Source: Candidatus Multivorans sp.
GTDB lineage: Bacteria > Acidobacteriota > Thermoanaerobaculia > Multivoradales > Multivoraceae
NCBI GenBank assembly: GCA_965247095.1
Contig: OZ251997.1
Coordinates: 320,001 to 384,000, forward strand
Direction of reading: 5' to 3'
Length of the DNA: 64,000 nt
In this document: one piece after another, positions 39,116 through 48,582 of the stretch
How positions within the stretch are numbered: position 1 is the first letter of the stretch
Layout: each line of letters starts with the position of its first letter
Notes under the pieces: generated by a model
Told to the model about the DNA's origin: nothing
Databases searched by the model: none
What the model saw: the letters and a program-made list of their open reading frames with translations, nothing else
Made by a program: the position numbers and the translations under genes

Positions 39116-39151
39116 TTGACCCAACTGGCGAAGCTGGTCTAAGTTGGACCA
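39116..39151 (+). promoter_or_regulatory. Promoter/operator candidate of TA module 3
   Basis: TTGACC-N18-TAAGTT with inverted repeat tggtc/gacca straddling the -10. Confidence 0.45.
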
Positions 39152-39182
39152 CATTGGTGAGGAACCCCTGAGGAGAGTCCCC

Positions 39183-39473
39183 ATGACCATTGGCCCCGAT
39201 TCTGAACGAGCTTGGACAGTCGCCGAGGCCAAGGCGCGCCTGTCGGAAATCCTCCGTCTCGCGCAGGAGGAAGGGCCCCAGCAGATCGGAAAGCGCAACA
39301 CCTTCGTCGTCGTTCCGAAGAGCGAGTGGGACCGACGTTCGACGCCGCAGAAGCCGCTGGGGCAATGGCTGGTCGAGAACGCGCCTCGCGGTATCGAGCT
39401 GGAGCTTCCCGACAGGAAGAACGAGCCGGAGCGAGAGATTCCCTTCCAGACCGAGGAGTGGGATTGGGAGTGA
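39183..39473 (+). CDS. Phd/YefM family antitoxin
   Basis: WTVAEAKARLSEILRLA..EGPQQI. Confidence 0.88.
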   Translation: MTIGPDSERAWTVAEAKARLSEILRLAQEEGPQQIGKRNTFVVVPKSEWDRRSTPQKPLGQWLVENAPRGIELELPDRKNEPEREIPFQTEEWDWE

Positions 39474-39889
39474 GGGGGTTTCTCCTCGACACGAATGTCG
39501 TCTCGGAGGTCGTCAGGCCTGCCCCTGATCTGCAGGTCGTCGCGTTTCTGAACTCAAGAAGCGACTTGTGGCTCTCGGCCGTTGTTGTCTATGAGTTGAA
39601 CTTCGGGTTGGAGCTCCTTCCCGCTGGGCGTCGTCGGCGCAACCTCGGCGCGTTCCTGTCGGCGGTCCAGGCCGACTTCGGGAACCGGCTCCTCCCCTTG
39701 GGCCAGCCCGAGGCTCAGCACGCGGCAAGTCTGCGTGCGCGAGCACGCCTCTCGGGCCGGAACGCCAGCGTGGCCGATGCGCTGATCGCCGGAACCGCGG
39801 CCGTGCACGAGCTGGTGGTTGCGACCAGGAACGTCTCCGACTTCGACAGCCTGGGCGTTGACGCCGTCAGTCCGTGGGCGCCCTTGTGA
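39470..39889 (+). CDS. vapC: PIN-domain VapC/FitB-like toxin
   Basis: LLDTNVVSE, ADALIAGTA, ATRNVSDF; GTGA overlap with antitoxin. Confidence 0.92.
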   Translation: MRGFLLDTNVVSEVVRPAPDLQVVAFLNSRSDLWLSAVVVYELNFGLELLPAGRRRRNLGAFLSAVQADFGNRLLPLGQPEAQHAASLRARARLSGRNASVADALIAGTAAVHELVVATRNVSDFDSLGVDAVSPWAPL

Positions 39890-42800
39890 ACTCCCGCCTT
39901 GAAGATGCGATCGAGGCCCTTCAGGCCATGCACATCGAAGACGCCGAGGATCCGCGGCAGACCCTGGCGCTGGCCCAGCGCGACATCCTGGGCGAGTACT
40001 CGCCGGCCTACATGCGGTGGCTGGACGCGCACCCGGAGGCGGAAGAGGGGCTGTTTCCGGTCGAGGAGGAATCGGCGAGGGAGCAGCGCGAGCGGATGTC
40101 GGGACTTCGCCCGGCGCCGGGCGAGGACATCCGGCGCTGGCTGCGTTTCCTGCGCTACCGGGAGTTGATCCGGGTGGCCGTTGCCGACTTCAGCGGTCTC
40201 GACGACTTCGATACGACGACGGCGAAGATCTCCCAGGTCGCGGATGTCTGCATTCAGCGAGCCCTTGAGGAGACGGGGCTTGATCGGGCGCCGTTCGCGG
40301 TCATTGCGATGGGCAAGTGGGGTGGCCTGGAGGTCAACTACAGCTCGGACGTCGACGCCCTCTTCGTCGCCTCGGACGATGTCGACCAGGAGGCTCTGCA
40401 CCGGCTGCAGCGGCAGGCGCCTCAACTGATCCGCCTGATCTCGGACAGTACGGCGGACGGCTTCGTGTTCCGCGTCGACATGCGCTTGCGGCCGGAAGGG
40501 AAGATGGGCCCGCTGGTGCGCACGGTGGGGCAGTACCTCCGCTTCTACGAGCGCTACGGCATGACCTGGACCTTCCAGGCGCTGATCAAGGCGCGCTTCG
40601 CGGCCGGCGACGCGGCGGCGGGCAAGAGCCTGATCGACGGCACGCGGCGCTTCGTCTTCAACCCGGAGAGGCCGCCGGAGACCCTGCTGCGCGAGGTCTT
40701 CGACATGAAGCAGATGATCGAGAAGTCGCTCCGTTCCCGGGGCACCGACATCGGCAACGTGAAGCTCGGTGCCGGCAGCATCCGCGACATCGAGTTCATC
40801 GTCCAGTTGCTTCAGCTTTACCACGGCGCCGCCAACAAGAGTCTCCGCTCGGCCAACACGCTGCGGGCGATGGCGCGGCTCCGGTCGCACCGTGTCATCA
40901 CCGATGACGAGCACGATGAGTTGCACGAGGCGTACGTTTTTCTGCGGGTGGTGGAGCACGTGCTTCAGTTGGAGCGGGATCTGCCTGTGCGCCAACTGCC
41001 GCAGGACCCGAAGCAGTGGGCGACGTTCCAGTGGCGCGTGGCTTTCGCCCTGCGCCAGCCTCTGGACACGCTCGATCTCGGCCGTCGCTATGAGCAGACG
41101 GCGGCCACGGTTCGCCGTATCTTCGGCGAGTTCTTCGAGGAGACGATCGAACTCCTGGAGCGCAAGCAGCAGGTGCGCGAGTTGTGCCCTGCCCTGCCCG
41201 CCGAGGTCGTCGACGAGCACTTCAGGCGGCTTGAGAGAGGCTACTTTCTGAGCTTCCCGGTCGAGGACGTGGCGCGCCACCTGGAGATGATCCACGAACT
41301 CGATTCCGATCGGCTGTGCCGGGTCGATGTGCGCTACGTCGGCTCGACGCGGCGGGTGACCGTGGTCGCAAACGACTACCAGGGCGAGTTCGCCAAGATC
41401 TGCGGCCTGCTCGCGGCCTACGGACAGTCGATCCTGAGCGGCAGTTCCTACACCTATCAGGATGTCGGCGACATCGGACTGTACCGGCGGCCTAGGCGAG
41501 TCCCGCGGCGCCGGCCGGAGCGGCGCCGGAACCGGCGCCGGCGGCGCGGGGCGCCGGCGCGCCCGCGAAAGAAGCAGGGCCCAACCCGGATCGTGTACTC
41601 GGCCGAGGTCCAGCCGGCGCCCGAACGGTCGAGCCACGTCTTTTCCTGGACCGAGTTCGAGCAGGACCTGAACCGGTTGCTCGTGCTCCTGGAGAAGGGC
41701 GATGCACGCCGTGCCAACGAGGAACTGACCCTGCGGGTCATGGAGGCGGCGCGCCGGATGGACCTCGGCGCCCAGGCGGACAAGGTGCTGCCGCCGATCG
41801 CCATCTCCGTCGACAACGAGTCGGACGAACATTGCACCATTCTGGAGATTCGAAGTCAGGACAGCTTCATGTTCCTGTTCGAGTTCGCGAACGTCCTCTC
41901 GACCCGGGACTACTGGATCGACAAGGTCGAGTTCGAGACGGTGGACGGCGAGGTGCGTGATCGCCTGTTCGTGACCACCCGGCGCGGCGGGAAGATCGAG
42001 GACCGGGTCGGAGTCGACAATCTGCGTCTGACGGTGACCCTGATGAAGCAGTTCGCGCGCCGGCTGGCGGTGGCGCCGAACCCGCACCTGGCTCTGCGGC
42101 AGTTCGGGGCGCTGATCGACGCGGCGTGCGAACAGGTTGCCGATCCGACCCACGCGCTCGCGTCGTCGCTGGACGAACTGGCGCGGGTCCTGGGGGCCGG
42201 CAGCTACGTCTGGGAAGAGTTCCTGCGCCGGCAACACGAGAGCCTGATGCCGCTGCTCGCCAACATGGCCGACCTGGATTTCGGCGCCGACAGAGGAGAG
42301 CTGGAGCGCCGGCTGGACGCGGCGCTCGAAGGCCCGGAGACGCCGGACGACATCCTCAACCGGTTCAAGGACGACGAGATCGGGCGCATCGACATGCGCC
42401 ACCTGACGCGCAGGATTGAGCATTTCAGCGACTTCGGCGCTGAACTCTCGACCCTCTCCGACGTGGTGCTGACCCGTGGCGCGGAGGAAGCGGTGGCCGA
42501 GGTCGCCGCCGGCGGACCGGCGCCTGGAGCGTGGTCTCTGTGTGCGCTCGGCAAGTGGGGCGGACGCGATCTCGGCTACGCCTCGGACATCGAGCTGATG
42601 TTCGTCTGGGATGCCGAAGGGTCGGAACAGGTCCGGTCCGGAGAACTCTACGAGCGCGCGGCGATGCGGCTGGCGCGCCTGATCCGCGCCAAGCGGGACG
42701 GGATCTTCGAGCTGGACTGGCGCCTGCGTCCCGGCGGCTCGTCCTCGCCGCTGTCGGCGTCGTTCCAGCGGTTCTCCTCGTACTACAGCTCCGACGGCGG

Positions 42801-43374
42801 CGCCGACCCGTACGAACGTCAGGCGCTGGTTCGGCTCCGCGCGGTCGCGGGCGATCCGGAGCTGTGCGCCCGTATCGAGGCGCACCGGCGGGACTACGTG
42901 TTCGATCCGCGGCCGCACGACGTGGCGCGCATCCGGCACCTGCGAAACCGGCAACGATCCGAACTCACAGCACCCGGTACGACGAACGCGAAGTTCAGCG
43001 CCGGCGGCCTGGTCGACGCCGAGTACTTCGTGCAGGTGCGGCAGATCGCGGCCGGCGCGGGCGACCCCGAAGTGCGGCAGACCAACACCCTGGAAGCGGT
43101 CCGCGCGCTGTACGACCGCGGCCACATCTCGCGTGACGAGTTCGAGCAGGTCGAGGCGGGATACCGGCTGCTGCGGGCGGTGATCAATTGCCTGCGCATC
43201 GTCCGCGGCAACAGCAAGGACCTGGTCATTCCCGCCCGGCAGACCAGCGAGTTCCGCTTCCTCGCGCGACGTCTGCACAGCCTGGGCCAGTTGCCGGACG
43301 AAGAGGGAGCGTGGGATCGGATCGCCGAGCGGATGGGCAGCCTGCAGCGTCTCTTCGACGGCCTTTCGGACTGA
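39886..43374 (+). CDS. glnE: Glutamine synthetase adenylyltransferase/removase with central GlnD-like tandem ACT domains
   Basis: Two NT cores (GKWGGLEVNYSSDVD...DMRLRPEG; GKWGGRDLGYASDIE...DWRLRPGG) separated by ACT-like segments; GTG overlaps vapC TGA. Confidence 0.88.
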   Translation: MNSRLEDAIEALQAMHIEDAEDPRQTLALAQRDILGEYSPAYMRWLDAHPEAEEGLFPVEEESAREQRERMSGLRPAPGEDIRRWLRFLRYRELIRVAVADFSGLDDFDTTTAKISQVADVCIQRALEETGLDRAPFAVIAMGKWGGLEVNYSSDVDALFVASDDVDQEALHRLQRQAPQLIRLISDSTADGFVFRVDMRLRPEGKMGPLVRTVGQYLRFYERYGMTWTFQALIKARFAAGDAAAGKSLIDGTRRFVFNPERPPETLLREVFDMKQMIEKSLRSRGTDIGNVKLGAGSIRDIEFIVQLLQLYHGAANKSLRSANTLRAMARLRSHRVITDDEHDELHEAYVFLRVVEHVLQLERDLPVRQLPQDPKQWATFQWRVAFALRQPLDTLDLGRRYEQTAATVRRIFGEFFEETIELLERKQQVRELCPALPAEVVDEHFRRLERGYFLSFPVEDVARHLEMIHELDSDRLCRVDVRYVGSTRRVTVVANDYQGEFAKICGLLAAYGQSILSGSSYTYQDVGDIGLYRRPRRVPRRRPERRRNRRRRRGAPARPRKKQGPTRIVYSAEVQPAPERSSHVFSWTEFEQDLNRLLVLLEKGDARRANEELTLRVMEAARRMDLGAQADKVLPPIAISVDNESDEHCTILEIRSQDSFMFLFEFANVLSTRDYWIDKVEFETVDGEVRDRLFVTTRRGGKIEDRVGVDNLRLTVTLMKQFARRLAVAPNPHLALRQFGALIDAACEQVADPTHALASSLDELARVLGAGSYVWEEFLRRQHESLMPLLANMADLDFGADRGELERRLDAALEGPETPDDILNRFKDDEIGRIDMRHLTRRIEHFSDFGAELSTLSDVVLTRGAEEAVAEVAAGGPAPGAWSLCALGKWGGRDLGYASDIELMFVWDAEGSEQVRSGELYERAAMRLARLIRAKRDGIFELDWRLRPGGSSSPLSASFQRFSSYYSSDGGADPYERQALVRLRAVAGDPELCARIEAHRRDYVFDPRPHDVARIRHLRNRQRSELTAPGTTNAKFSAGGLVDAEYFVQVRQIAAGAGDPEVRQTNTLEAVRALYDRGHISRDEFEQVEAGYRLLRAVINCLRIVRGNSKDLVIPARQTSEFRFLARRLHSLGQLPDEEGAWDRIAERMGSLQRLFDGLSD

Positions 43375-43389
43375 GTGGCCGGCACACAC

Positions 43390-43431
43390 AAAGAGAAGCG
43401 CGCCGGGGAGCAGCAAGCTCCCGCGGCGCGC
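43390..43431 (-). terminator. Intrinsic terminator of amtB-glnK (possibly bidirectional)
   Basis: GC hairpin gcgcgccg-gggagc/gctccc-gcggcgcgc followed on minus strand by ttctcttt. Confidence 0.65.
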
Positions 43432-43452
43432 GCCTCGTGTGATGCGATGCAG

Positions 43453-43794
43453 CTAGCCGATCGCGACGTTTCCGGTTTCGCCGGTGCGGATGCGGATGCA
43501 CTCCTCGAGCGGCAGGACGAAGATCTTGCCGTCACCGACAGTGCCGGTCTTGGCGCCCCGTGTGATCGCATCGATCACCACGTCGACATAGTCCTCGTTG
43601 ACCGCAAGCTCGATCTTGAGCTTGCGTAGCAGAGCGCCGGCCTCCTTGTGGCCGCGGTAGACCTCGGCGACGCCCCGCTGGCGACCGCGCCCCATGACGT
43701 TGGAGACGGTCAGCAGGTGAATGTCCTTCTCTTCCAGGAGATCGAGGACCTCCTGCATCCGGTCGGGCTGAACGATGGCTACGACGTACTTCAT
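43453..43794 (-). CDS. glnK: PII nitrogen regulatory protein (GlnK-type), Tyr51 replaced by Glu
   Basis: GRGRQRG..EVYRG, TGTVGDGKIFV, IRIRTGE; adjacent to amtB. Confidence 0.93.
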   Translation of the reverse strand: MKYVVAIVQPDRMQEVLDLLEEKDIHLLTVSNVMGRGRQRGVAEVYRGHKEAGALLRKLKIELAVNEDYVDVVIDAITRGAKTGTVGDGKIFVLPLEECIRIRTGETGNVAIG

Positions 43795-43812
43795 GTCATT
43801 CCTCCTTCTGCC

Positions 43813-45153
43813 CTAGTCGACCAGGGTGTAAGCGTTTTCGCGGTGGTCGGTGAGGTCGAGCCCGAGCCGCTCTTCGTCATCGCTGACACGGAGTCCGATG
43901 ATCAGGTCGATGACCTTGAGCAGGATGAAGGACACGACCGCCGCCCAGACGATGGTGAAGGCGATTGCCTTGAGCTGGATCAGGACCTGACCGGCGTTGC
44001 CGTAGAACAGTCCGTTCGCGTCGTTGCCTGGCACCACGTCCGTGGCCCAGAGGCCGGCCGCAACGGCGCCCCACATGCCGGCGATGCCGTGGACACCGAA
44101 GACATCGAGGGAGTCGTCGTAGCCGAGCTTCGACTTGAGCCACGTCACTGCCAGGTAGGCGCAGACGGACGCACCGATACCGACGCCGATGGAGCCGATC
44201 GCGTTCACCGAGCCGGAGGCCGGAGTGATTGCAACCAGACCGGAGATCGCGCCGGTGATGACGCCCAGGAGCGTCGGCTTCGAGTCGCGGATCCAGTCGA
44301 TCAGACCCCAGGTGGCAGCCGCTGCCGCGGTCGCCACCTGGGTGACGACGAAGGCGTTGGCTGCCGAGCCGTTGGCCGCCACGGCGCTGCCGGCGTTGAA
44401 GCCGAACCATCCGAACCAGAGCAGGCCGGTGCCGAGGACGGCGAAGGGCAGGTTATGCGGAGGTGAGGTGTGGTCCGGATGGCCCTTGCGGCGGCCGAGA
44501 ACGAACGCCGCAACGAGGGCCGAGACACCGGCGTTGATGTGAACGACGGTGCCGCCGGCAAAGTCGAGGGCGCCGTCGCCGCCGAGGCCGAAGAAGCCCT
44601 CGGAGCCGCCCCAGACCCAGTGGCAGATCGGGGCGTAGACCACCAGCAGCCAGGCGCTCATGAACAGGCAGATGGCGCTGAACTTCATCCGTTCCGCGAA
44701 GGCGCCGATCATCAGGGCCGGCGTGATGATCGCGAACATGCCCTGGAAGATCATGAACAGCGGCGCCGGAATGCCGGTGCCGTCCCAGGCGTCGTAGCCC
44801 AGGTTGGCGAGCAGGAAGTAGTCGCCGCCGCCGATCACGCCGCCGAGGGCGTCGGAGCCGAAGGCCAGGCTGAAGCCGATGACGACCCAGAGCACGGTCA
44901 TCAGGCTCATGCACAGGAAGCACTGCATGAGGATCGAGAGGACGTTCTTGCGCCTGACCAGTCCGCCGTAGAAGAACGCCAGTCCCGGCGTCATCAGCAG
45001 TACCAAAGCGCTGGCGGTCAGCATCCAGGCCGTGTCGCCGCTGTCCACGCCTTCCTGTGCCGCTGCCGGCGCCGCGCCGAACAGAGCCAGCAGCAGAGTG
45101 AGTCCCAGGGCCGAACCCAGACCGATGGTTCGACCGCGAATTCTGAAGCTCAT
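43813..45153 (-). CDS. amtB: Ammonium transporter
   Basis: GDTAW, PGLAFFYGG, DFAGGTVVH, WFGWFGFNAGS, DDSLDVFGVHG. Confidence 0.97.
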   Translation of the reverse strand: MSFRIRGRTIGLGSALGLTLLLALFGAAPAAAQEGVDSGDTAWMLTASALVLLMTPGLAFFYGGLVRRKNVLSILMQCFLCMSLMTVLWVVIGFSLAFGSDALGGVIGGGDYFLLANLGYDAWDGTGIPAPLFMIFQGMFAIITPALMIGAFAERMKFSAICLFMSAWLLVVYAPICHWVWGGSEGFFGLGGDGALDFAGGTVVHINAGVSALVAAFVLGRRKGHPDHTSPPHNLPFAVLGTGLLWFGWFGFNAGSAVAANGSAANAFVVTQVATAAAAATWGLIDWIRDSKPTLLGVITGAISGLVAITPASGSVNAIGSIGVGIGASVCAYLAVTWLKSKLGYDDSLDVFGVHGIAGMWGAVAAGLWATDVVPGNDANGLFYGNAGQVLIQLKAIAFTIVWAAVVSFILLKVIDLIIGLRVSDDEERLGLDLTDHRENAYTLVD

Positions 45154-45269
45154 ACGAATCCCTCCTCTTCGTTTGATCCACCCGGCTGGTCATCTCGGTC
45201 CGCGCTGCCTCTTCGGAGCGGGCGAGGTCAGGTTTCCGGAACTGACGTCCAGGCTTGCCCTGTTCCTCT

Positions 45270-45286
45270 ATCGAAAACCGTGCCAA
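45270..45286 (-). promoter_or_regulatory. sigma54-like promoter of amtB-glnK
   Basis: TTGGCACGGTTTTCGAT: perfect -24 element, GA instead of GC at -12. Confidence 0.45.
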
Positions 45287-45513
45287 GCGCGCGGAGTCGC
45301 TTGAGTCGCGTCGGGAAGCGCTGACGCGGGACCGCGGCAAGGCCCGCTAACCCGCGCGCAGGCGCGAATTAGCGGCCGATTGAGGGGGCGGCGATGAGGC
45401 CCGGGTGTGGCTACCGGTTCGGGGTCAGGCTGTCGGCGCACCGCCCCGCACAAACATTCCTGTTCGGCTTGGGGCGGGCGTGCGACAGAACTGTAACGCC
45501 GGCAGGATCGGGC

Positions 45514-47511
45514 TCAGGGCAGGTCGAGCGCCGGGTTGCGGTCGAAGAAGTCGAACGGGCGCAGTTCGAACCCGTGCCACATGACCGGCATCACCGGCCA
45601 GTCCTCGGCCCGCGGCAGGTGGTGCATGCCGACCGTGTGCCAGAGCACGATGTCCCGGTCCTGGATCGGCCGGTCCGCCTCTGTCCATTCGGGCAGACCC
45701 ATGCCCGGCTCGCTCAGGGTCGGGTGGTCGCCGGCCGCGTAGAGTTCGTCCGGGTCGTAAGGGGTCACCCACAGGTGGTGGTCGATGAAACCGGCGCGCC
45801 GCCGCGGATAGTCGTCCGCCGAGAGCAGCGTATTCGCGTTCCTGCCCGGCATCACCTGGAAACTCGTCGGGTAGCCGACGGCGTTCGTCCGGCTGGTGCT
45901 GAGCACCCGCCAGAGCGTTGGTCGCTCCAGGCTGATGTTCAGCCGGGCGTCGTGCTCGCTAACCGCGACCTCTTGTTCCTGGACCCACAGGCTGCGTCTG
46001 GGGTGGTCGGCCGGCAGCCGCTTGGTGACCAGGCGATCGGCGACGAAGCGATTGTCTACGCCATCGACGTCGAGGTCGAGCCGGTAGCTGAAGTAGTGGT
46101 CGTGATTGACGGCGACGATGTTGCGGTCAACGAAACGGCCGTAGGCATCGGCACGACCGGGTGTCCGGAGCGCGTCGGCCGCGGCTGTGTTGACCGGCCC
46201 CGCCGATGGCGCCGGTGGGATCGCGGAGGCTGCGTTCGTTGCTTTGACTTCCAGGATGCCGGTGGCGCCGACCCGGGCTTCGATAGAGCCGTCCTGCCGG
46301 AAGATCCAGTCAAGCAGGTAGTCGTAGTTGCCGACCACGGCCCCCGTCCGCACGACCAGGTCGCGACTCTGCCGGCTGTCGGGCTGTTCGGAGGCGTAGT
46401 GCCGCCAGGCAGGATCGCCGGTCTCTCGTTCGTACATGCAGATCGTGTCGGGCACGGTGCGGGGGCGGCCGTTGCCGCCGCTGACCAGGGTGTCGATGTA
46501 GACCGCGTGATCGGGGCAGTCCCGGCCGCGCAGCATCGGTTTGGCCAATCCCCCGGCAACGAATTCGCCGGCGTCGATGAAGTTGCGCCGATACCAGGCG
46601 AACGACGGGTCCATGTACGGAACGAAGATCTCGGACAGATGGCCCTGGTACATCACGGAGCGGGAACTCGCGCCGGATCCCGGCTGGTAGCGGACCAGGG
46701 ACAGAACCAGACCGATCCGCTGATCGGGCCTCAGGTGGAAGTTCCAGTTCTGCCAGCGCACCTGGTAACCGTCGATCTCGAAGCCGGGTCCGAGCGGCTG
46801 GCGCGTATCGATCGGTCCCGGCACTTCGCGCGGATGGTCGAGGGTGGTGCGGTCGAAGTCCGCATTCGTCGTGGTGGCGGGCACCGGGCCGTCGTCAACC
46901 ACCCGCAAGACTTCGCCGGCGCCCAGGTCGACCACGGCGCTCAGGCCCTCGACCTGCCGGGTCCAGCCGTTGCGGACACCGCGCGACTCGGAACACCTGA
47001 CATTGCCGATCCGCCGTCCGCGCTCTTCCTCGGTCCCGAAGTAGCCGGGTGGTCCCGTGCCGCAGTCGAGAAAGGTGTGATCGGTGATGCCGCGCGCCTC
47101 AAGGCCGGCGATGAAGTCCGGATGTTCGAGCACCTTGTCGACGACTGCCTCGAACTCTTCGCCGAGCCAGGCGGGTTGCACTCCGGTAAGGGGCGTCCAT
47201 GACGTGACTCGCTCGGCGGCAAGGTCGACGGTGGCCTCATAGGTCTTGTCGGCCTGGCGAACCACGGCATAGACTGCCCGGGCCATTTCGAGGCCGGGTT
47301 GCCAGGCCAGCACATCACGTTTGGCCGGCTCCTTGAGTCTCAGTTCCGAGAAGCGGGTGTCCTTGTCCATGTGCCCCGCATCGCGGAGCACCTCCAGCGC
47401 ACGCCACATCTCCTGGTAGCTCAGGGGGTCGAGCGGATGTTCCGCGGCCGGTACGGGTGCGGCCATGGCGAGAACCATGGAGAGAGCGAGAAGGAAGGTC
47501 GACGAGCGCAT
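45514..47511 (-). CDS. Exported copper-containing (TPQ) primary amine oxidase
   Basis: HPLDPL, VGNYDY topaquinone motif, HDH and H Cu ligands, EDWPVMP, FFDRNP; signal peptide. Confidence 0.93.
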   Translation of the reverse strand: MRSSTFLLALSMVLAMAAPVPAAEHPLDPLSYQEMWRALEVLRDAGHMDKDTRFSELRLKEPAKRDVLAWQPGLEMARAVYAVVRQADKTYEATVDLAAERVTSWTPLTGVQPAWLGEEFEAVVDKVLEHPDFIAGLEARGITDHTFLDCGTGPPGYFGTEEERGRRIGNVRCSESRGVRNGWTRQVEGLSAVVDLGAGEVLRVVDDGPVPATTTNADFDRTTLDHPREVPGPIDTRQPLGPGFEIDGYQVRWQNWNFHLRPDQRIGLVLSLVRYQPGSGASSRSVMYQGHLSEIFVPYMDPSFAWYRRNFIDAGEFVAGGLAKPMLRGRDCPDHAVYIDTLVSGGNGRPRTVPDTICMYERETGDPAWRHYASEQPDSRQSRDLVVRTGAVVGNYDYLLDWIFRQDGSIEARVGATGILEVKATNAASAIPPAPSAGPVNTAAADALRTPGRADAYGRFVDRNIVAVNHDHYFSYRLDLDVDGVDNRFVADRLVTKRLPADHPRRSLWVQEQEVAVSEHDARLNISLERPTLWRVLSTSRTNAVGYPTSFQVMPGRNANTLLSADDYPRRRAGFIDHHLWVTPYDPDELYAAGDHPTLSEPGMGLPEWTEADRPIQDRDIVLWHTVGMHHLPRAEDWPVMPVMWHGFELRPFDFFDRNPALDLP

Positions 47512-47634
47512 GGGTTTCTCCTAGGGTCGCGGTGGTCAAGTCCGCTTGATGGGGGCTGACTTGTTGCCCAGGTGCTGTTGGCTCCGCCACCTGAACCTAT
47601 CGCGGCTGCGCCTCCGCTGTAGACTCGCCAACCT

Positions 47635-48582
47635 GTGAGTCTGCGCATCGTGCCACCGTCGCCGCGTCCGAGCGCTACTCCTGACGCCGTCTCGGCGTCG
47701 AAGGCGGGACACCGCTGGCCGTCCGCCCCCCAAGGGCGGCAGTTGTTCCGTCAGGCGACGGACAGCAGCAGCCCGCGTCAGGTCAAGACCAGCGTCGCGC
47801 TCCAGTTCCTGCACCGGATCGTCGGGCTGGAGTACCTGAACTTCGGCATGTGGAGCGCCGGCGATCCGCTCGACCTGGTCGGCCTGCGCCGCGCCCAGGA
47901 GCGCTTGGTCGGACGCCTGTTCGAGCTGCTTCCGCCGGGCGTGTCCTCGGTGCTCGACATCGGTTGCGGCACCGCTGTGATCACGGAGCGGCTGGCGGTG
48001 CTGGGCTACGATGTCGAGGGTCTGTCGCCCGATCCGTATCATGGCGAGCTGTTCAGGGCGCGGCTCCCGGATCGGCGCTTTCACCTGGGCCGCTTCCAGG
48101 AGTTCGAGCCCGACCGGCGCTATGACCTCCTGTTCCTCTGCGAGTCGGCGCAATACGTGTGGCTGGAGGAGCTGTTCGAGGCTGTGCAACGGTCGCTGAC
48201 GCCGGGCGGGCACGTGCTGCTGTGCGACTACTTCGTCACCTGCCCGGACGGCAGCGAGGGGTCGAGGAGCGGCCACCCGCTGGACGAGTTCCTGGCTCGG
48301 GCCGAGGCCAGCGGGCTCGTTCTCGAGATCGACGAGGACGTGACCGAATCCGTGCTTCCAATGCTGCGGCTTGCGCAAGCGATGCTGGACCGTTACGGCC
48401 GCGGTGCCGTGAGCCTGCTGCGCGAGGCCTCCACGCGGCGGTTCCCGCGGTTGGCCGGCGCCGGCTGGCGATTGGCGCGGCCGCTCACCGGCCGGCTCGA
48501 CCGGCTCGACCGGCTGATCGACCCGGAGCACTTCGCCCGCATCAAGCAATACAGGGTCATGCGGTTCCGGAGAGAGGAGTGA
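47635..48582 (+). CDS. Class I SAM-dependent methyltransferase
   Basis: YLNFGMW, VLDIGCG, LTPGG; start position uncertain. Confidence 0.82.
   Translation: MSLRIVPPSPRPSATPDAVSASKAGHRWPSAPQGRQLFRQATDSSSPRQVKTSVALQFLHRIVGLEYLNFGMWSAGDPLDLVGLRRAQERLVGRLFELLPPGVSSVLDIGCGTAVITERLAVLGYDVEGLSPDPYHGELFRARLPDRRFHLGRFQEFEPDRRYDLLFLCESAQYVWLEELFEAVQRSLTPGGHVLLCDYFVTCPDGSEGSRSGHPLDEFLARAEASGLVLEIDEDVTESVLPMLRLAQAMLDRYGRGAVSLLREASTRRFPRLAGAGWRLARPLTGRLDRLDRLIDPEHFARIKQYRVMRFRREE

Follow-up and report, generated by a model that had tools for sequence, protein, structure and literature searches.

We report that the DNA stretch analysed here (the window: 64,000 nucleotides, positions 320,001 to 384,000 of contig OZ251997.1, Candidatus Multivorans sp.) encodes a bifunctional GlnE, the adenylyltransferase/adenylyl-removing enzyme of glutamine synthetase (GS), in which a GlnD-type cassette lies between the two catalytic halves. 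GlnD, PII, GlnE and GS form the textbook bicyclic covalent-modification cascade, worked out almost entirely in Proteobacteria. In the genome described here GlnD was not found, and the sensor module typical of GlnD, comprising a pair of ACT domains, is present within GlnE. The reading that we favour, by somewhat more than even chances, is that the ACT pair binds a metabolite reporting nitrogen status and gates the catalytic half that follows it, which would give GS adenylylation a direct input.

The open reading frame (ORF) of glnE extends from 39874 to 43374 on the forward strand (1166 aa), with an alternative upstream GTG at 39874. We placed the start at the GTG at 39886, because it agrees with the N-termini of homologues and overlaps the stop codon (TGA) of the upstream PIN-domain gene as GTGA; the gene thus spans 39886..43374 (+) and specifies 1162 aa, while residue numbers are counted from 39874. 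Pfam detected the nucleotidyltransferase (NT) domain PF03710 in two stretches (E 1.7e-70) and the helical domain PF08335 in two stretches (E 8.2e-32), the former preceding the latter in each half. Alignment with both halves of Escherichia coli GlnE showed that the catalytic motifs are intact (GKWGG...SDVD / RVDMRLRP and GKWGG...SDIE / ELDWRLRP), since G-x-G-G ... S-D-x-[DE] and the Asp of D-x-R-L-R-P are present in both halves; the catalytic motif positions are, in addition, invariant in 35 C halves. Specifically, the N-terminal half (39886..41145, +), of the N or adenylyl-removing (AR) type, carries the motif EV-N-YSSDVD, matches the structure 1v4a at E 4.6e-43 and groups in our trees with canonical N halves, including that of E. 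coli. The C-terminal half (42064..43371, +) is divergent, reaching 97.5 bits to 1v4a, and belongs to a lineage of halves adjacent to ACT pairs. The NCBIfam GlnE models match the protein at E 2e-121, and their equivalog cut-offs are not reached (PRK14109, 406.8 against 625 bits; PRK11072, 354 against 487; PRK14108, 300.5 against 724) as the score is depressed both by the insert and by the divergence of the C half.

The central module (residues 425-730, nucleotides 41146-42063, about 300 aa) is confirmed as GlnD-type by its sequence and as ACT by its predicted fold. When the module alone was compared with NCBIfam, all five matching families were GlnD models: module residues 6-106 align with positions 676-779 of the 940 of PRK05092, the GlnD stretch running from behind the HD domain into ACT1, and residues 199-288 align with positions 750-837 of the 850 of TIGR01693, which correspond to the GlnD ACT2. 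Among 40 homologous aligned modules, 23 match the Pfam ACT model and 28 match ACT_ACR9_3rd, and 12 of the 19 short forms scanned exceed the 27-bit cut-off. The module is strongly conserved across phyla: in the 40 sequences, seven columns do not vary at all and 17 more agree in 90% or more of the rows.

The AlphaFold2 model of the module, built on 20 sequences, has a mean predicted local distance difference test score (pLDDT) of 80.7 and a predicted template modelling score (pTM) of 0.80, and depicts a helical linker followed by two ACT domains packed side by side, with the four-stranded antiparallel sheet and two helices on one face that define the ACT fold. In an all-against-all structure search, the best match was the tandem ACT of Synechocystis aspartate kinase (3l76_B; Z 12.6, 157 residues aligned, root-mean-square deviation 4.0), followed by the regulatory domain of E. 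coli threonine dehydratase (9d2s_A, Z 9.1), CASTOR2 (Z 8.0) and, from plants, single ACT-like domains (Z 6.2-6.4). A Foldseek search gave the same picture, its top matches being proteins with ACT-like domains. Four segments can be assigned on the forward strand. A four-helix linker (41146..41301; model helices 2-50, pLDDT about 90) is, by the PRK05092 match, homologous to the GlnD stretch preceding ACT1. The ACT1-like segment (41311..41694), assigned from the model and the fold matches, carries a loop D-Y-Q-G-E-F conserved in the family, in which D77 and G80 of the D-x-x-G pattern occur in 90% or more of the 40 homologous modules. The ACT2-like segment (41800..42060), assigned from the model and the TIGR01693 match, has the loop D-S-F-M after its first long strand; this sequence is found in the own clade and its Verrucomicrobia/Lentisphaerae sisters, and most relatives have D-[TA]-P-G. 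Between strands 3 and 4 of ACT1 lies an Arg-rich loop predicted to be disordered (41464..41574, pLDDT 30-38), an insert of about 37 residues (module residues 107-143) whose length and sequence vary across the family and which is often basic. The initial annotation, made from the letters of the window alone, had proposed two complete GlnE halves with a GlnD-patterned ACT pair between them and had called for a check of the central region for ACT domains. Both proposals were borne out by these data; the two ACT-like peptides that it quoted are present in the translation, and their location, given as ~41230-42010, is corrected to ~41311-41694 and 41800-42060.

To place the catalytic halves, trees of the nucleotidyltransferase domains were built. 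Their rows were taken from E. coli GlnE, from 18 canonical GlnE proteins (85 were found in the phylum sample described below), and from 19 two-half and 10 single-half ACT forms of the 73 loci introduced further on; the tree of 86 rows is a quick tree and that of 45 rows a careful one. All halves directly following an ACT pair fall into one clade, with a Shimodaira-Hasegawa-like approximate likelihood-ratio test (SH-aLRT) support of 100 in the 86-row tree and 100/100 in the careful tree. The clade is recovered with a support of 99 when all eight forms with an N-terminal ACT pair are added (61 rows), and of 100 with longer segments (59 rows). Therefore, we conclude that the ACT pair is inherited as one unit together with the half behind it. 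This cassette recurs in three layouts: half-ACT-half, the type of the window (about 1160-1290 aa), ACT-half (about 700-780 aa) and ACT-half-half (about 1250-1290 aa).

It is probable that the half behind the ACT pair is of the adenylylating (AT) type. The ACT-adjacent half is collinear with the AT half of E. coli GlnE, and a single branch separates the N-type halves from the C-type and ACT-adjacent halves together, with supports of 92 (86 rows), 62, and 87 (59 rows). In the 59-row tree, moreover, the second half of the forms with an N-terminal ACT pair falls on the N side. A comparable result was observed at three diagnostic alignment columns, obtained with relaxed residue-class criteria (strict criteria left one uninformative column), where C-type cells outnumber N-type cells by 28 to 2 in the ACT-adjacent halves of two-half forms and by 15 to 0 in single-half forms, the ratio being 3 to 30 in N halves. 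One of these columns lies in the catalytic motif, where N halves have Asn, and all ACT-adjacent halves, as well as the AT half of E. coli, have Gly.

The genome of the window (Acidobacteriota) consists of one contig of 4.62 Mb and is 98.96% complete. A search for glnD, which the initial annotation had asked for, found no GlnD in it: the TIGR01693 profile gave nothing over its cut-off, and the PF08335 and module profiles matched GlnE only, yielding no further candidate. The GlnE of the window shares NT, PF08335 and ACT regions with GlnD; unlike GlnD, it has no HD match, it scores 64.8 against the 519.4 bits of the TIGR01693 cut-off, through its NT and ACT regions only, and its catalytic halves are of GlnE type. 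The best match other than GlnE, an ORF of 429 aa resembling a nucleotidyltransferase, was considered as a hidden GlnD and rejected, as it matches TIGR01693 at positions 331-418 only; in our reading it encodes an enzyme of the poly(A) polymerase/CCA type. The genome holds a single PII and a single GS, of type I (GSI). The latter has the loop DVDIYDLSPEE, which also occurs in the Synechocystis GS 3ng0, so that it is no proof of modification.

The sole PII gene, glnK (43453..43794, -; Pfam P-II, PF00543, 87.4 bits against a cut-off of 25), lies 18 bp from the ammonium channel gene amtB, placed upstream of it on the same strand (43813..45153, -; Pfam E 1e-122, TIGR00836 over its cut-off), and both genes are convergent with glnE. 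Over residues 1-111 the product can be aligned gap-free with the chains of GlnK and GlnB from E. coli, and residue 51 is therefore a Glu (YRGHKEAG) and not the Tyr that is modified elsewhere; Arg47 and the GDGKIF motif are kept. Each of the 16 own-clade loci in synteny shows the same arrangement: they have amtB-glnK beside glnE, a Glu51 PII and glnK at 78 bp from the end of glnE. Thus, the convergent amtB-glnK pair with a PII lacking Tyr51, as proposed in the initial annotation, is confirmed. Because there is no GlnD and the single PII lacks Tyr51, signalling through uridylylated PII (PII-UMP) is impossible in this genome; therefore, if PII contributes an input, it can do so only in its unmodified form, as a reader of 2-oxoglutarate and ATP/ADP. 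The 78 nucleotides between the convergent glnE and glnK genes (43375..43452) form a GC-rich hairpin with a minimum free energy of -46.5 kcal/mol (z -4.96), matched by none of 200 shuffled sequences, and likely act as a two-way terminator. The two best solved relatives of this PII are GlnK1 chains, one from Methanothermococcus thermolithotrophicus and the other 8tge_J; the entry 8tge holds GS together with GlnK1, which recalls that a direct action of PII on GS is possible.

At least 73 ACT-GlnE loci were found among species-representative genomes, in Acidobacteriota, Verrucomicrobiota/Lentisphaerota, Chloroflexota, Planctomycetota, Nitrospirota, Thermodesulfobacteriota and others. The initial annotation had pointed to similar proteins in Planctomycetes-like genomes; the window itself is from an Acidobacteriota genome, and Planctomycetota do carry the architecture. 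A search of 1.84 billion cluster representatives with the module profile gave 7574 matches at E <=1e-3 and 4105 at E <=1e-10, GlnD included, and 311 clusters (at 50% identity) at E <=1e-30. In 10 of the 73 loci listed, all from Chloroflexota, the GSI gene (glnA) adjoins the ACT-glnE gene. No paper pairing GlnE, or its full name, with ACT domains was found in the full-text literature, a corpus that leaves subscription journals mostly outside. All together, these data describe an ACT-GlnE architecture that is real, widespread and unstudied.

Related arrangements were noted in the same searches. A Nitrospirota contig (G050:C284:2539-16892) carries a 577-aa ORF with a nucleotidyltransferase match, divergent to an ACT-bearing single-half gene, with glnD and a PII gene about 9 kb away, and looks like a two-gene GlnE beside a classical cascade. 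ORFs of about 266-317 aa from other Acidobacteriota resemble stand-alone ACT pairs of GlnD type and match both ACT parts of the module profile (G098:C238:11341-11955, from a genome flagged unpublished; G146:C39, G082:C7, G220:C8, G265:C5, G170:C95 and G308:C91). The single-half ACT-GlnE of a metagenome-assembled genome (MAG) titled Pedobacter sp. (L074) sits in the tree almost on top of its counterpart from a Pelobacter MAG (branches of 0.03-0.04), and the record is likely mislabelled or contaminated.

In the mechanism that we propose, the ACT pair would bind a small metabolite reporting nitrogen status, most likely glutamine. On binding, it would gate the following half, most likely the adenylylating and thus GS-inactivating one, and high glutamine would drive GS adenylylation through this direct input, without a GlnD relay. 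Glutamine is suggested because of the GlnD/ACR ancestry of the module together with two statements in PMC11190351: GlnD needs its ACT domains for the glutamine response (there attributed to Zhang et al. 2010), and an ACR-like ACT domain of the same topology is needed for the activation of an algal amylase by glutamine. GS is the presumed target, given the single GSI of this genome and the GSI genes adjoining ACT-glnE in the Chloroflexota loci.

Several observations on the protein itself weigh against this proposal, as do some of the distribution data that follow them. The Pfam ACT models match neither the module of the window (E <=0.01) nor the whole protein (E <=1); with Phe-Met in place of Pro-Gly in ACT2, one canonical ligand loop may have been lost or changed. 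A one-chain model of the module and the C half (742 aa) has a pLDDT of 81.8 and a pTM of 0.70, and its junction between ACT2 and the C half is of low confidence (pLDDT 46-69), leaving the docking of the sensor undecided by the model. As for the AT assignment, the split that supports it appeared in only 42% of bootstrap trees of the careful 45-row analysis, which does not resolve the backbone, and the free 45-row tree places the ACT-adjacent clade on the N side (support 83/70). A tree in which the N side was held together was better than the free tree by 3.5 log-likelihood units (approximately unbiased test, p-AU 0.69). The canonical-N profile outscored the canonical-C profile for all 19 ACT-adjacent halves and all 10 single halves, in a comparison that was rejected as an AT/AR test since it has no power to discriminate: of the 48 ACT-GlnE halves, only five N halves do not score best with the N profile, and with the two profiles the C half of E. 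coli GlnE reaches 205.8 and 205.4 bits. Similarly, the C half ranks the E. coli N domain 1v4a above the C domain 3k7d in both phmmer and Foldseek, a comparison set aside as uninformative because both halves rank 1v4a first.

We then consider the co-occurrence of ACT-GlnE, GlnD and PII, surveyed in the genomes of 50 of the 73 loci; of the other 23, most were on short or truncated contigs or came from additional own-clade members, and the low-scoring PII-like rows L114 and L117 were dropped. GlnD was absent from 34 of the 50 carriers, whose genome completeness is not given. Specifically, these comprise all 12 own-clade genomes and two Verrucomicrobia/Lentisphaerae genomes, each with one Glu51 PII, five genomes with one PII having Tyr at position 51 in another loop context, and 15 genomes, all Chloroflexota, with no PII at E <=1e-8. 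The remaining 16 carriers keep GlnD (13 over the cut-off, one cut by a contig end and two at E 1e-96), each together with at least one PII having a Tyr51 of the YRGAEY type; a cultured carrier with GlnD, whose complete genome is titled Planctomicrobium sp. SH661, has two PII genes. Therefore, the cassette is compatible with the classical cascade and is not by necessity a substitute for it: it can exist without GlnD and PII, and it also coexists with a complete classical set.

The phylum sample comprised 301 Acidobacteriota genomes, 300 of them at least 90% complete (G098 and G195, flagged unpublished, are included). GlnE and GlnD occur together in 30 of these, GlnE only in 61, GlnD only in 34 and neither in 176. 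The full-length module was found, by a search with a stricter first look, in the own genus only (6 of 6 genomes), while 55 of the 301 have an ordinary two-half GlnE without ACT and lack GlnD; hence the insert is not a precondition for having GlnE without GlnD. For the genomes of the own order and class that are shown, neither the GlnD search nor the GlnE search lists a match, and families f2-f25 tally zero. In a PII sample of 41 genomes of the class (G073, flagged unpublished, included), none of the 25 PII copies outside the own genus, from relatives with neither GlnD nor GlnE, has Tyr51, and 16 of the 25 lie beside amtB. The loss of Tyr51 is therefore tied to the absence of GlnD and not to ACT-GlnE. 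Within the same class, a separate kind of T-loop, HGGETERVETYRGTTVKMEL, in which position 51 is Val or Leu, is common to the amtB-linked PII of the GlnD-less relatives L142-L154; this subtype is unlike that of the window.

The initial annotation had gone further and proposed that ACT-GlnE collapses the cascade into one polypeptide that bypasses GlnD, to be checked by the co-occurrence of ACT-GlnE, Tyr51-less PII and GlnD absence. The own genome, with no GlnD and no Tyr51, and the 15 carriers lacking both GlnD and PII are in line with this idea; the 16 carriers with a classical set are not, and as a general rule it is not supported, given the ACT-less GlnE proteins in genomes without GlnD and the independence of Tyr51 loss from ACT-GlnE.

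The origin of the locus bears on the same question. The PII of the window is 61-66% identical to that of Verrucomicrobia/Lentisphaerae carriers of the same GlnE subclade, against at most 50% within its own class, and AmtB is 58% identical to theirs, against 32-51%. Thus, by sequence comparison with two genomes of the Planctomycetes-Verrucomicrobia-Chlamydiae (PVC) group, the GlnE, PII and AmtB of the own clade all appear closest to those of these carriers. The order amtB then glnK is likewise found in both PVC genomes, in which glnE and glnK lie on different contigs, and no other sampled family of the class has any GlnE. This pattern agrees with glnE and amtB-glnK having been acquired together, and the shared affinity keeps open that this PII and this GlnE may work together.

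Such a partnership is central to one alternative, which we hold to be possible yet doubtful: the ACT pair would be an extra tuning input, the main regulator would be unmodified PII reading 2-oxoglutarate and ATP/ADP, and the loss of GlnD would be an unrelated trait of the lineage. The carriers keeping GlnD and a Tyr51 PII speak for it, as do the Nitrospirota contig with its ACT-bearing gene near glnD and a PII gene, and the fact that members of the class, whether they have GlnE or not, normally lack GlnD and have a Tyr51-less PII. The PVC affinity of PII and AmtB also fits a PII and a GlnE that travelled and work together, and so does the constant 78-bp spacing of glnK from glnE; the 16 adjacent loci are, however, close relatives only, the two genes lie apart in the PVC genomes, and the 15 carriers without a detectable PII indicate that the cassette can exist without any PII. 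These Chloroflexota, lacking both GlnD and PII and in some cases having glnA beside the gene, suggest instead a self-contained glutamine-gated switch, in which one polypeptide would sense nitrogen status through a GlnD-derived ACT pair and set GS activity without GlnD or PII. We put this forward tentatively, and consider it somewhat less probable than not.

The nature of the ligand and that of the target could also differ from our proposal. That the module binds another metabolite, for instance another amino acid, or is only a structural or oligomerisation element, appears unlikely. ACT domains bind many ligands and often mediate oligomerisation, as stated in PMC11190351, the best structure matches of the module are Lys/Thr-, Ile- and Arg-sensing ACT pairs, and the ACT2 loop glycine is lost in the own clade; the sequence, on the other hand, matches only GlnD models and the ACR-type ACT family, lineages that PMC11190351 ties to glutamine responses, and the module is strongly conserved across phyla. 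That the enzyme AMPylates a protein other than GS is very improbable. The unreached equivalog cut-off (406.8 against 625 bits), the divergence of the C half and the presence of the AMPylase DrrA among the fold matches could be taken in its favour, but both halves are clear members of the GlnE family, GS genes adjoin the gene in 10 of the 73 loci listed, and the one GSI of the genome has the loop DVDIYDLSPEE.

Compared with known systems, the closest counterpart is E. coli GlnE (ATase, 946 aa; N domain 1v4a, C domain 3k7d), which likewise consists of two homologous nucleotidyltransferase halves, each with PF08335, has the same catalytic motifs and the same presumed substrate, GSI, and is controlled by PII, PII-UMP and glutamine. 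The protein of the window differs by about 300 extra residues between the halves, namely the GlnD-type linker and ACT pair, by falling below the NCBIfam equivalog cut-offs, and by its host, which has neither GlnD nor a PII that can be uridylylated. Outside ACT-GlnE, the module has a single relative by sequence, namely the linker and ACT1-ACT2 region of GlnD. The ACT domains of ACR type that plants and algae possess (in Arabidopsis, the ACR proteins; in Chlamydomonas, AMA2) are related through the ACT_ACR9_3rd matches and the plant ACT-like domains among the fold matches, and PMC11190351 describes an enzyme activated by glutamine via such a domain; they are, however, eukaryotic, stand-alone or fused to other enzymes, and have no link to GS adenylylation.

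GlnE of mycobacteria and Streptomyces adenylylates GS independently of PII modification, and according to PMC3612183 the Actinobacteria are a documented case in which PII modification is irrelevant to GlnE control. A GlnE with no need of the GlnD-PII relay is, therefore, a known phenomenon. These hosts keep GlnD and a Tyr51 GlnK (PMC3612183), unlike the host of the window, and no ACT module is reported for their GlnE (these proteins were not scanned here), whereas the window's GlnE has one.

The surroundings of the locus can be briefly described. Directly upstream of glnE lie a Phd/YefM antitoxin gene (39144-39470) and the PIN-domain toxin gene (39473-39886); the latter was found in only 4 of the 16 own-clade loci and has the look of a recent insertion. 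A gene for a copper amine oxidase (45514-47511, -), which lies upstream of amtB-glnK and shares its strand, is kept in all 16 own-clade loci, and may form with amtB-glnK a unit that releases ammonium from amines and then takes it up. Matches to a sigma-54-type pattern were not in excess (19 against 17.5 expected), and a sigma-70 promoter scan of 43300-47800 found none.

In conclusion, the replacement of the classical signalling chain by ACT-GlnE is only partly supported. What is new here is a complete genome without GlnD and with a single Glu51 PII, counts that separate the loss of GlnD from the presence of the insert, a cassette recurring across three layouts, and the shared PVC affinity of GlnE, PII and AmtB. 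The constant position of the ACT pair upstream of one lineage of catalytic halves gives a concrete prediction of the activity that would be gated, and a GlnE carrying the sensor module of GlnD makes the control of GlnE without GlnD directly testable; how GlnE is controlled in the 55 Acidobacteriota with neither GlnD nor the ACT insert is the same question as for the ACT form. If the self-contained switch were true, PII in this Acidobacterium would be left only with the ammonium channel, and no circuit known to link nitrogen status with GS activity would be shorter than ACT-GlnE, a natural rewiring of the textbook cascade.

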